DNA from: a virus
Length of the DNA stretch: 64,000 bases
Virus record (IMG/VR): IMGVR_UViG_3300045988_027877
Coordinates: 39,851-103,850 of that record
Direction: 5' to 3' (one strand)
Shown: piece after piece, positions 52,031 to 54,252 of the stretch
Numbering within the stretch: the first letter of the stretch is position 1
Layout of the letters: each line of letters starts with the position of its first letter
The notes under the pieces: generated by a model
Database searches by the model: none
What the model saw: the letters and a program-made list of their open reading frames with translations, nothing else
Told to the model about the DNA's origin: nothing
Position numbers and translations under genes: made by a program

Positions 52031-52099
52031 AAAAATGTTTCCCTTCTTGATTCCGTACTTGATATACCATACGGATCATTTTAATGTTTTTTAAGTTAA

Positions 52100-54250
52100 T
52101 ATTCGTTTTAATGCTCTCTACCGTTCGATTATTTCTTAGCACTACAGTAATGGTAGTGGTGAATTCAATCACATAATCTACTAAGCTTTAATAGAATAAA
52201 TGTCAATTTATTTGAAAATATCATCTGATAAAATCTCTGATAAAATATGACAAAGATTGATAAATGTTTATCGTCCCGTGTCGACGGCTAAGATTCAACT
52301 CTTTCGATGCTTAGCGCACCTATCACCGTAATCCTATATCGCGATTGGATGCAATATAGAAAACTAAGTCAATGGCATCTTTTCAGCCTATTAGTATTTC
52401 CGGAAATTACGACAATCTATGCGATTGAAGGTCGTTTTATCTAAACATTACTAAAACTCACAAGCCCATTGCTTGAAGCATGGCCCACTTGTACCTCTCG
52501 GATTTGTTGTTTATACTGCGCGAATACTGGGATTTCCACCCTTCATCGTTTCCTTACTGCCTAATTGCTCTTGCTATTAGGTCAAAATGTACTTAGCCCT
52601 TTAATCTACCGAGACAGGGTGATTGGCTGTAGGTTATTAACGATTCAGCGTTCTCTTTACACATTTATTTGCTGTAAATGTTTTAGGAGTGTCTAATGTC
52701 AGCGTAACGGTTGGCAGTCTAAGGGTGACTCGTACTCCATGCGGTCTATCTTACAACTGATAATTTGCCACTTCTGTACTATCATTGAACTTCCTTAATT
52801 ATTTGTGACCATAGCCTTCCTTCACTATGCGTCGATTAATAATATATTAACTATCTCTTAGAACAGATTTAACTAGGCCAGTTCTATTCGGCATTAACTT
52901 TCAGATGCAGTAGAGTAACATCATCTGTTCACAATCTTACCTCTCTGGTTCCAGGGTTCTAAGCTGGAGCAGCTTGGCTCTTACTTGTTAACTTGTTGTT
53001 TTTGACTACTACTAATATCTCCTACTCTGGAATGAGTGTGATAATCTAATAGTACACCTTTTCATATCTTGAAAGGTATAAGCTCTGCTGTTTTTTAATA
53101 GGAGTACCAAGACTCTCCTTGCTTATTATTTTATGCCATATCATACTTGCTAAAGGTATGTGACAACTAGAATCAGGGTTATAGCGCCCTCAAACCGCCT
53201 GAACACTCTGGGTTCAGTCATTCCTCATTCATTTATACTCACACGAACGACTAAGCACGTGAGTCACTTTAGACTTGAAAGAATGCTATCAATCTCATAT
53301 AGCTTCATCCCTCATACGTAAGTTCTTTTGCAGCACACTATTTACGATAATGCACAGGATTGGCTCCTGCTCCACGATAATCAATCAGAGTAAAACTACA
53401 CGTAGTTCTACAATCTGGATCATTGCGTTTCCAGCTTTCATATCCTTACTTTGCATAAGTATGTACCATAACACGGTTATCCTTCATTAGTATCAGTATT
53501 TACTTCCCTTCATATAACGGCTATCTACAAGCTTTTACGAGTAGACGAGACAGATTCTCTCCATTAGAACACTAGAAGTTAGCACCCGTATTTTCTCTTT
53601 CTGAACGCATACTTGCGCTTTTGTTAAGCGAGTTTGGAGCCCGCTGGAGGACGTTCGTCAGTCCTTAATATAAATATATGTTTCGACGTTCCTTTCCAAA
53701 GGGATTAGTCCAAGAGCCGTATTGCCCTTGTTTCAGCATCGTGTTTATACTCCTTTTTGAATCACATCTTGATAGTGCATACGAGCATTAGGATTTCGTT
53801 CCTATTTTGGAGATTATGGATATTGTTACTAAGTAGTTTTATTTGTTTATTCTACCAACTATATCTCTCCGATTTGAATTAATTTATGACTAGGGTATCT
53901 TCTTGTAGCTCCTAAATCAAGGGTTCTTCACATTTAATATCGCCAGCCGGTTCTCATATTATTTGCGTGGGCTATTCACCCTCTCCCACTTTCCCTACCT
54001 TTTTCACCAGTATGGGCTATTATCCTACCTTTTGAGTATCTCACCGTTGTTGCGGCTATGGAGCATCTCATAACTACTCCTGACATATTCTCGGATTCTG
54101 TATCTTTTCGGGCTATGTGTTAATGGACACAAACTCCCTGACGCGGTAGTACTTGAAAACTTCCTACTGTGACCGCCGGAGTGATTCACGCTTTGGTTTT
54201 ACTCCTCTCGAACCATAGTATAATTATAGTATTTGTATAGCGGCTATTAC
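52100..54250 (-). ncRNA. candidate large structured non-coding RNA region (strand inferred)
   Basis: About 2.1 kb with no credible ORF in any frame, even allowing TAG read-through. Sampled lines are about 43% GC, versus about 32% in nearby genes. The + strand is pyrimidine-rich. There are many local 5-6 bp hairpins. Confidence 0.3.
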
Positions 54251-54252
54251 TA

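Follow-up and report, generated by a model that had tools for sequence, protein, structure and literature searches.

Large 'ornate' RNAs are rare, and every new class of them has so far been informative. The ROOL RNA is about 600 nt long, as is the OLE RNA, which is bacterial and belongs to extremophilic Firmicutes. ROOL is carried by phages and prophages and adopts a complex multi-helix fold, with no known protein partner or function; GOLLD is often found near tRNA islands; and for GOLLD, ROOL and OLE RNA-only assemblies have recently been shown (PMC12286853). Among the smaller elements, Hatchet is reported to be largely confined to Crassvirales (bioRxiv 10.64898/2026.03.07.710320), while group I introns have been reported in core genes of the Delta phages (PMC7886860, PMC10136315). 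A screen for structured RNAs throughout IMG/VR yielded motifs of 29-151 nt only (PMC10690425); elements of the size considered below escape screens of this type.

Gene content and composition of the locus

The window, which is the whole stretch of 64,000 nt that was analysed (positions 39,851 to 103,850 of the IMG/VR record IMGVR_UViG_3300045988_027877), comes from a phage of the genus Buchavirus (Crassvirales, Suoliviridae). The gap at 52031-54252, between the minus-strand genes 51398-52030 and 54253-54678, holds no protein gene and is the largest ORF-free stretch of the window at a threshold of 80 aa; its longest ORF is a plus-strand frame of 71 aa at 53275-53490, the only one that had been listed when the gap was noticed from the sequence. 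Stops of all three kinds occur in the six frames, with 43-72 per frame within 51900-54400. Other large gaps of the window open into frames of 350-550 codons when TAG is read as sense, and these are therefore recoded late genes. The best TAG-sense frame in 52031-54252 is antisense and has 134 codons, and its position changes from one relative to the next; no frame common to the 33 relatives was found under the standard, TAG-sense or TGA-sense reading. Thus, the sequence-only reading was right that TAG read-through cannot rescue a gene here. In the present RefSeq records, this region is left empty or is filled with spurious small CDSs.

The composition of the locus proved a poorer guide. The GC content, estimated in that reading at about 43% against about 32% in the polymerase gene, is actually 38.3%; this exceeds the values for the window as a whole (34.6%) and for the polymerase gene (31.9%), but not those of the adjoining genes (37.8%, 43.3% and 42.9%). 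Similarly, the pyrimidine-rich plus strand is real, the minus strand being 57% purine, but the same bias (55-56%) is found in the flanking genes. The abundance of short hairpins had been taken as a clue to structure; however, the first 1000 nt show no gain in predicted folding energy over shuffled sequences (z = -0.31 sense, +0.85 antisense), and therefore the hairpin abundance in the single sequence is not above chance and is not diagnostic. The GC enrichment and the hairpin stability of the locus are thus not distinctive. The three hairpins named at about 52561, 53055 and 53188 do exist, and each has compensatory changes in the relatives.

Mode of evolution

The locus has 113 near-full homologues, with lengths of 2036-2221 nt. 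The nucleotide diversity by phase is nearly flat in the locus (0.244/0.238/0.235) versus 0.295/0.216/0.492 and 0.25/0.194/0.375 in the two flanking genes, and the phase-to-phase ratio does not exceed 1.26 in the former versus 1.9-2.3 in the latter. The three-nucleotide periodicity, which had been proposed as a possible refutation of a non-coding nature, is therefore absent from the locus and present in its neighbours, namely, the upstream gene of 141 aa (54253..54678, minus strand), whose stop codon abuts the RNA and which is syntenic in all subfamilies, and the downstream gene of 210 aa (51398..52030, minus strand). Indels divisible by 3 make up 15% in the locus versus 69% in the downstream gene. 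The mean diversity of the locus, 0.239, is below that of the flanks (0.334 and 0.273), and between genera the RNA retains 72-80% nucleotide identity, with the flanking proteins going down to 39-57% identity. Judged by this sequence comparison, the locus evolves as a structured RNA, in a manner unlike that of protein genes or DNA sites. In these tightly packed genomes, about 2% of the sequence would be given over to an RNA that is more strongly constrained than the proteins encoded next to it.

Covariation, strand and folding

The covariation was assessed with a model of 422 pairs, for which the full-length alignment was made with MAFFT and the structure was predicted on the same alignment. In this model, 94.8% of cells are paired versus 38-40% in slid controls, a percentage that is inflated because the structure was predicted on the alignment also used for scoring. 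This reuse does not inflate the numbers of double changes as compared with the slid controls: 168 of the 422 pairs have changes on both sides, compared with 33-47 in the slid controls and 118 in shuffles, none of the 500 shuffles reaching the observed number. The covariation score is 0.279 versus 0.044-0.062 in controls. The alignment of relatives that had been recommended thus gave a number of doubly compensated pairs far above the slid controls, and the large structured RNA suggested earlier gains support from covariation over the whole length, the lack of codon periodicity and the family-wide conservation.

When the model is read as minus strand, 1345 G·U cells are counted versus 209 A·C cells, and 94.8% of cells pair versus 86.5% when it is read as plus strand; this asymmetry points to the minus strand as the one transcribed, in the direction of the neighbouring genes, as the sequence-only reading had suggested. 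The locus contains about 95 helices along with invariant unpaired blocks, and the unpaired regions of the RNA are A-rich (43% A). The covarying helices are spread along the entire 2 kb, the best-supported of them being local, with a span of no more than 172 nt. A candidate helix closing the 5' and 3' ends, 54218-54208/52128-52118, covaries at two pairs only and contains mismatches in 10 of the 33 sequences, by which such a closure is weakly suggested. Most of the long-range helices that would tie the parts into one fold are based on invariant pairs, and for this reason the single-molecule fold is a candidate only. Covarying palindromic loops, a weak proxy for a symmetric oligomer or kissing loops, were not found in the alignment.

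Distribution and conserved cores

A syntenic ORF-free gap of 2.0-2.5 kb is present in Loutivirinae, Boorivirinae, Uncouvirinae and Bearivirinae, that is, in all four subfamilies of Suoliviridae, and the nhmmer matches across them are collinear. The covariance models of the 5' core (54105-53945, model R2) and the 3' core (52798-52634, model R1) match in every subfamily, with constant order and orientation and a core-to-core distance of 1.14-1.31 kb. Detectable homology across the subfamilies is limited to these cores of about 140 and 165 nt, which nhmmer extends to about 270 and 650 nt, and in the middle 800 nt of the RNA it is not detectable by nhmmer. The 5' core model scores 35-70 bits in Boorivirinae, Uncouvirinae and Bearivirinae and gave no match in the one Intestiviridae locus tested; 98% of its cells are paired, with double changes in 14 of 17 pairs. 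The 3' core model scores 85 bits in Bearivirinae, 47-52 in Uncouvirinae, and 44.5 and 18.8 in Boorivirinae, with 98.5% of cells paired and double changes in 11 of 19 pairs. The 16 loci recovered from Boorivirinae are 88-99% identical and too uniform for covariation.

The 3' core is present in 68/68 testable IMG/VR loci, and neither a lineage that has lost or rearranged a part of the RNA nor a locus lacking the element was found. In a scan of genome contigs with an 18-nt pattern, every occurrence of the RNA was on a contig of phage size that had been binned into a MAG, and the remaining matches were due to chance.

Layout of the locus

The conserved ORF-free locus (52031..54252, minus strand) can be divided into a putative giant structured RNA and the structured leader of the next gene; all its parts listed here lie on the minus strand. 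It begins with a Loutivirinae-specific 5' extension (54106..54252), composed of invariant blocks and covarying helices, which include an invariant hairpin GGAGU...ACUCC at 54205-54178 and a covarying hairpin at 54131-54116. In the other subfamilies, the extension was not detected by nhmmer, the matches beginning at about profile position 156; in Aurodevirus, the upstream ORF ends with a stop codon at which the 5' core directly begins. No second copy of the conserved 5' motif AAATACTATAATTATA exists in the window. The 5' core domain (53945..54105), shared by the four subfamilies, terminates in an invariant UGAGAACCG and accommodates, in some lineages only, an inserted hairpin of 24 nt (54059..54082), which is present or absent as a block in the manner of an expansion segment. 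Another such segment, a stem-loop of about 72 nt (53802..53873), is restricted to the window and a few relatives, and the helix that flanks it covaries. Further downstream, nested covarying helices make up a sub-domain (53311..53459); 5 of 7 pairs covary in the long-range helix that closes it, CUUAUGC/GUAUGAG (53459-53453 with 53317-53311).

After the 3' core domain (52634..52798), also shared by the four subfamilies, the conserved RNA body has near its 3' end a hairpin GCUAAG...CUUAGC (52287..52315), with all 6/6 pairs covarying. Next, at 52208..52243, UUAUCAGA occurs as a twin motif within A/U-rich sequence that covaries little; in Uncouvirinae and Bearivirinae, UUUUAUCAGA is found at the corresponding site too, and the twin motif possibly separates the RNA body from the next transcription unit. 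The downstream gene has in its leader a hairpin CACUAC...GUAGUG (52140..52158; 6/6 pairs covary) and a hairpin with an AUCAA loop (52051..52076), after which come AAUCAA, a ribosome-binding site and, at 52030, the start codon. The latter hairpin shows compensatory changes and is kept in all subfamilies (nhmmer profile positions 2027-2101), its segment having a blastn identity of 93% between subfamilies.

Neighbouring genes, small RNAs and database searches

Several proteins stay in fixed synteny with the RNA, among them one of 510 aa that has a lysine-rich tail and a small one that is anchored in the membrane. The gene of the 510-aa protein (55140..56672, minus strand) is always located 2.2-2.5 kb upstream of the 3' core and is co-conserved with the RNA, which makes it a candidate partner only. 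The N-terminal 118 residues of the protein are disordered and rich in Lys, Ala and Glu. None of its 59 homologues has a Pfam domain, no sequence match was obtained in PDB, and its AlphaFold2 model (pLDDT 68.5) has no Foldseek match at E <= 0.001. For the seven flanking proteins, neither a significant Pfam match (a single weak one being below the Pfam cut-off) nor a PHROG match was found.

The Rfam elements Hatchet, RAGATH-9 and RAGATH-20 are located in the same minus-strand early block, and none of them overlaps the 2.2-kb locus. The nearest Rfam tRNA match (48621-48679) is 3.4 kb away, with none adjacent, and ARAGORN detected no tRNA or tmRNA in the window. The resemblance to GOLLD or ROOL that had been offered as a possibility was not borne out: the recommended covariance search of Rfam, run at the gathering thresholds for the whole window, at E <= 10 for 51800-54500 and at E <= 0.1 for six distant relatives, returned nothing in the locus, the models without a match including GOLLD, ROOL, OLE, introns and rRNA. 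The scan for sigma-70 promoters and intrinsic terminators was not above shuffles. A template RNA of a DGR or a retron RNA was also considered and rejected, as blastn against the rest of the window gave no match and the flanking proteins have no RT domain.

Interpretation and rival explanations

As far as sequence comparison can tell, the locus is in all likelihood a very large structured non-coding RNA of the minus strand with a mosaic layout, and neither a protein gene nor a DNA site. The RNA would run in the direction of the surrounding early and replication genes, with its body of roughly 2.0 kb extending from about 54250 to about 52270, and the remaining 240 nt would serve as the structured leader of the next gene. 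The mosaic would consist of two Suoliviridae-wide cores, many covarying helices between and around them, and lineage-variable stem-loops, much like the expansion segments of rRNA. The chances seem even that the RNA has no promoter of its own and forms a part of a long operon transcript begun upstream, perhaps with subsequent processing. Tentatively, it may act in trans in infection as a stable architectural RNA, either as an RNP scaffold with the co-conserved neighbour proteins or, by analogy with GOLLD and ROOL, as an RNA-only assembly. It is likewise a doubtful, although conceivable, proposal that the whole 2.0-2.5 kb is one molecule with a single giant fold, working as a machine that captures a host process. 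If this is true, the machine would be a large ribozyme or the RNA core of an RNP with the co-conserved proteins, the captured process could be, e.g., translation, transcription or defence, and, ribosomal RNAs and introns aside, no structured RNA known from a virus of bacteria would come near it in size.

The rival to be considered most seriously, albeit an unlikely one, is a series of independent, smaller structured RNAs or processing products in tandem, such as a 5'-core RNA and a 3'-core RNA with variable spacer hairpins between them. It would agree with the detectable homology of just the two cores across subfamilies, with the local character of the best-supported helices and with the presence of the three small RNAs in the same early block. 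However, the order, orientation and spacing of the cores are fixed in the four subfamilies, the total length stays within 2.0-2.5 kb, no lineage has a part lost or rearranged, and the interval is occupied by covarying helices, promoter and terminator signals being absent from it. The latter absence, together with the position within a co-directional operon, is also what a giant cis-acting leader or spacer of a polycistronic mRNA, controlling the downstream translation, stability or processing, would lead one to expect, as are the 5' core abutting the upstream stop codon in Aurodevirus and the 3' end continuing into the family-wide conserved hairpin and the ribosome-binding site of the next gene. 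Such a leader is nevertheless improbable, in that known ones are of tens to a few hundred nt, 2 kb with about 95 helices far exceeds the need, and the conserved leader hairpins are confined to the last 160 nt.

The three remaining explanations have far less in their favour. An ORF-less self-splicing intron or its degenerate remnant, which had been mentioned among the possibilities, would fit the commonness of group I introns in Delta crAss-like phages, but is very improbable: group I/II models of Rfam have no match at E <= 10 in the window locus or at E <= 0.1 in the relatives, each flanking ORF is a complete gene that has a stop, a ribosome-binding site and a start of its own, and the two are separate in every subfamily, no relative lacks the element and has the flanks fused, and no homing-endonuclease ORF is found; we know of no precedent for an ORF-less intron of 2 kb. 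A DNA-level element, i.e., a replication origin or packaging site, had likewise been proposed for this non-coding region, which does adjoin the replication module, but direct repeats or iterons are lacking, and the region shows neither AT-richness nor a turn of the cumulative GC skew; as the strand-asymmetric G·U covariation is selectable at the RNA level only, such an element is refuted as the main explanation and its probability is remote. Lastly, recoding, frameshifts or pseudogenisation might be imagined to conceal a protein gene in a phage that recodes TAG in its late genes, but the probability of such a gene is close to negligible, given the three stops in all frames, no conserved frame under any reassignment, no codon periodicity and indels not in threes; moreover, the RNA locus is more conserved than the real genes and is therefore the opposite of a pseudogene.

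Comparison with known systems

No description of this RNA element was found in the literature searched, and the probable structured RNA of Suoliviridae is about 2.5 times longer than the largest known phage RNA of this kind, as well as absent from both Rfam and that literature. The size range of the ornate RNAs would thereby be widened about 2.5-fold, in a family (Delta group) that is among the most abundant phages of the human gut; the annotation of the locus is corrected, and RNA-seq, structure probing and cryo-EM are given a concrete target. Hatchet, RAGATH-9 and RAGATH-20 differ from it as motifs of 100-170 nt that are already in Rfam. With GOLLD, it shares the phage origin, the very large size, the heavy structure, the dispensability of an ORF, and the combination of conserved domains with a variable part; however, many GOLLD members are described as >800 nt, compared with about 2.0-2.5 kb here, and the Suoliviridae RNA occupies a fixed site between protein genes in one phage family only. 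ROOL is similarly phage-borne and multi-helix but several times smaller, with a different host range and genomic context. The OLE RNA with its Oap partners is comparable as a large structured RNA with co-conserved neighbouring genes, and an OLE-style partnership of the Suoliviridae RNA with its neighbour proteins may only be proposed by analogy. Finally, there is a likeness to rRNA in architecture only: although no Rfam rRNA model matches, one copy is present per phage genome and no sign of a link to translation is seen, the RNA has the size class, the conserved core with lineage-specific inserted stem-loops and the A-rich unpaired regions in common with rRNA.

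The ORF-free locus and its constraint

The phage is crAss-like and belongs to the genus Buchavirus (Crassvirales; Suoliviridae; Loutivirinae), and its locus at 52031-54252, 94% identical to that of cr52_1 (NC_055888), specifies on the minus strand a large, structure-selected RNA element conserved across Suoliviridae. The locus is the longest stretch of the window devoid of ORFs at a threshold of 80 aa. As the sequence-only reading had stated, the minus-strand genes 51398-52030 and 54253-54678 have no credible gene between them, where the longest ORF is of 71 aa; stop codons of all three kinds are frequent in the six frames (43-72 per frame), and reading through TAG gives no gene either, the best frame being of 134 codons, antisense, and differing in position between relatives. 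The proposed GC enrichment is present relative to the window mean and the polymerase gene (38.3% vs 34.6% and 31.9%), but the locus is no higher than the adjacent genes (37.8-43.3%); similarly, the purine bias of the minus strand exists at the same level in the flanks and is thus a weaker clue. Folding of the first 1000 nt was energetically no more favourable than in shuffles (z = -0.31 and +0.85).

Nucleotide diversity among 33 representatives shows no 3-nt periodicity (0.244/0.238/0.235 by phase), with a phase ratio of at most 1.26 in every 300-nt window of the locus, while the flanking genes carry a codon signature (0.295/0.216/0.492 and 0.25/0.194/0.375). Indels in multiples of three make up 15% in the locus vs 69% in the downstream gene. 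The mean diversity of the locus (0.239) is lower than that of its flanks (0.334 and 0.273), and between genera, where the flanking proteins fall to 39-57% identity, the RNA is still 72-80% identical at the nucleotide level and contains many invariant blocks. The CDSs placed by RefSeq within the RNA in several relative loci (L002 6272-6709, of cr113_1; L003 3272-3709, of cr109_1; L197 2583-2768; L200 and L201 2531-2692) are of 145 aa in antisense or 53-61 aa in sense, are not conserved among relatives, and look like spurious gene calls.

Covariation and RNA structure

RNAalifold on a MAFFT alignment of 33 sequences of the locus, the same alignment serving for both derivation and scoring of the structure, gave 422 pairs in 95 helices, with standard pairs in 94.8% of cells vs 38-40% when the partners were slid by 1-3 columns. 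Changes on both sides were found in 168 pairs, vs 33-47 after sliding and 118 ± 4.5 after shuffling (0/500 shuffles reach 168), and the covariation score was 0.279 vs 0.044-0.062 in controls. An energy-free search supported covarying helices over the whole 2 kb; the fully compensated ones include 52315-52310 with 52292-52287 and 52158-52153 with 52145-52140, and compensatory changes were found in all three of the hairpins singled out from sequence alone. Since G·U exceeds A·C in the paired cells (1345 vs 209), it is the transcript of the minus strand that folds, in agreement with the orientation first proposed. Unpaired positions are 43% A. Most of the very long-range helices are built of invariant pairs, and a candidate helix closing the 5' and 3' ends is weakly supported.

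Some stem-loops, such as 54082-54059 and ~53873-53802, occur as whole blocks in certain lineages and are missing from others, in the manner of expansion segments. In the alignment of the 3' core (52798-52634), one hairpin comes in two alternative forms, GAUAGUACAG... and GGAACUGUAAAC..., both compensated internally; each form is common to otherwise differing lineages, which suggests recombination or module exchange within the RNA.

Occurrence and conservation across Suoliviridae

A blastn search of 50,697 phage records matched the locus in eight, at 72-94% identity, the three Loutivirinae genera being represented by all seven of their RefSeq genomes; in every record the match is a gap of 2.1-2.2 kb that carries no annotation and has the same genes on its two sides. 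Pattern and protein scans of IMG/VR yielded 174 loci, with 113 near-full copies of 2036-2221 nt (nhmmer), which fall into 33 clusters when grouped at 98% identity and into 7 when grouped at 80%. In the GTDB genomes the element is confined to phage-sized contigs (~98-100 kb) that had been binned into MAGs, two of which come from rabbit samples; no copy was found there in bacterial chromosomes. The record IMGVR_UViG_3300045988_036136 (183.7 kb, ~2x genome length) has two loci, L160 and L167, each with a partial copy of the RNA, and is probably a concatemer assembly.

Beyond Loutivirinae, an unannotated gap of 2477 nt was located at the syntenic site of cr55_1 (Boorivirinae) starting from the polymerase, in the gene order sigma factor, small gene, 460-570-aa protein, ~130-aa protein, gap and two ~180-aa proteins, with the DNA polymerase further on. 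Chained blastn similarity led to more such gaps, each 2.05-2.5 kb long and set in that gene context, in Boorivirinae (cr1_1, cr50_1, cr10_1), Uncouvirinae (cr115_1, cr125_1, cr114_1), and Bearivirinae (cr6_1, MT835473). The profile of the 33-sequence alignment has collinear matches inside the non-Loutivirinae gaps, with E-values down to 9e-25 (nhmmer). Covariance models built from Loutivirinae sequences only, R1 for the 3' core and R2 for the 5' core (54105-53945), gave full-length matches on the RNA-sense strand in other subfamilies: R1 at 19-85 bits, except in cr10_1, which has a weak 23-nt fragment only (E = 0.076), and R2 at 35-70 bits in all other-subfamily gaps, including cr10_1. With distant members added, the R1 alignment is 98.5% paired with 11/19 pairs doubly compensated, and that of R2 is 98.0% paired with 14/17. 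The distance between the cores, start to start, is 1.14-1.31 kb in every subfamily. The 3' core lies 2.2-2.5 kb downstream of the gene for the 510-aa protein in all 68 IMG/VR loci that reach far enough, a further 12 with this protein and no 3'-core match being ended early by contig ends. The one Intestiviridae locus examined, cr3_1, lacks a comparable gap and is not matched by R2.

Transcription, boundaries and neighbouring genes

Neither a sigma-70-type promoter or terminator nor a recurrent motif stands out at the locus, and in Aurodevirus the 5' core begins where the upstream ORF ends, at its stop codon; therefore, the RNA is probably transcribed together with its operon. It would be a single molecule of ~2 kb. 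The first ~150 nt of the window's RNA occur in Loutivirinae only. Past ~52270, an A/U-rich stretch with twin UUAUCAGA motifs, recurring in other subfamilies, is followed by covarying hairpins and then by a family-wide hairpin, AAUCAA and a ribosome-binding site just before the next gene, for which the final 240 nt of the locus would form the leader, its boundary being putative.

Searches with the neighbouring proteins pointed to no function. In the 510-aa protein the N-terminal tail is disordered and rich in lysine, and the 134-aa protein upstream of the RNA (54671-55075, minus) has a hydrophobic stretch at its start, either a signal or a membrane segment. Four genes downstream of the RNA, a 220-aa protein (49396-50058, minus) is extremely basic (pI 10.1, 25% Lys + Arg).

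Other structured RNAs and recoding in the window

Upstream of the giant RNA, within its minus-strand early block, structured RNAs are unusually abundant, with gathering-level Rfam matches, all on the minus strand, to the Hatchet ribozyme (63021-63147), RAGATH-9 (61238-61392) and RAGATH-20 (60216-60318). An Rfam match to the RT-17 RNA at 5397-5485 (plus) barely passes its gathering score (40.8 vs 40.4 bits) and falls in a 1.7-kb segment (4870-6601) where standard-code ORFs of at least 80 aa are absent and a 348-codon frame exists if TAG is sense. Standard-code ORFs of at least 80 aa cover 68% of the window, and the other large gaps, on the plus strand at 4870-6601, 12583-15118, 20801-22385, 28737-29804 and 36080-37270, open to frames of 350-550 codons with TAG as sense; thus, the plus-strand late genes are TAG-recoded.

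A short Rfam tRNA match (48621-48679, minus; 35 bits, 59 nt) lies directly upstream of the DNA polymerase gene, at a site occupied in relatives by tRNA-Val or tRNA-Arg, and ARAGORN detected no tRNA in any part of the window. The RefSeq record of cr52_1 carries a tmRNA annotation (NC_055888 81171-81551) at a place equivalent to ~59.1-59.5 kb of the window, where neither ARAGORN nor Rfam detected one in the window's sequence. The region ~59092-60442 has no minus-strand ORF of at least 70 aa and only a plus-strand ORF of 191 aa (59388-59963); a plus-strand gene near the equivalent of this region in cr113_1 is annotated as an endonuclease.

Relation to known RNAs

At permissive thresholds, neither the window's locus nor those of relatives matched any Rfam 15 family, so that membership in GOLLD, ROOL, OLE, group I/II introns, rRNA, tmRNA and RNase P, as defined by the Rfam models, is excluded. 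The intron remnant suggested earlier is further contradicted by flanks that are complete and separate genes and by the lack of an element-free allele, and a replication origin is excluded by the absence of repeats, an AT-rich region and a skew turn, together with the strand-specific covariation. A DGR template was likewise rejected, as no repeat of the locus occurs elsewhere in the window.

A review of Crassvirales and the main comparative paper report group I introns in Delta-phage core genes only, and nothing at this locus (PMC7886860, PMC10136315), while an IMG/VR-wide screen for structured RNAs contains motifs of 29-151 nt only (PMC10690425). No description of this RNA was found in the literature searched, and RefSeq leaves the region blank or fills it with small non-conserved CDSs; accordingly, the RNA is regarded as an undescribed class within the limits of that literature. 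Speculatively, it might be a trans-acting architectural RNA or form a ribonucleoprotein core.

GOLLD and ROOL, large ornate phage RNAs that form symmetric contacts (PMC12286853), come closest in kind; covarying palindromic loops, a weak proxy for such contacts, were tested for in the 33-sequence alignment with a negative result. Unlike GOLLD and ROOL, to which it has no homology, the Suoliviridae RNA is ~2.5 times longer, lacks a tRNA neighbourhood and is fixed in position in one phage family, but it shares with them a phage-borne, ORF-less nature and an elaborate fold of conserved and variable parts.
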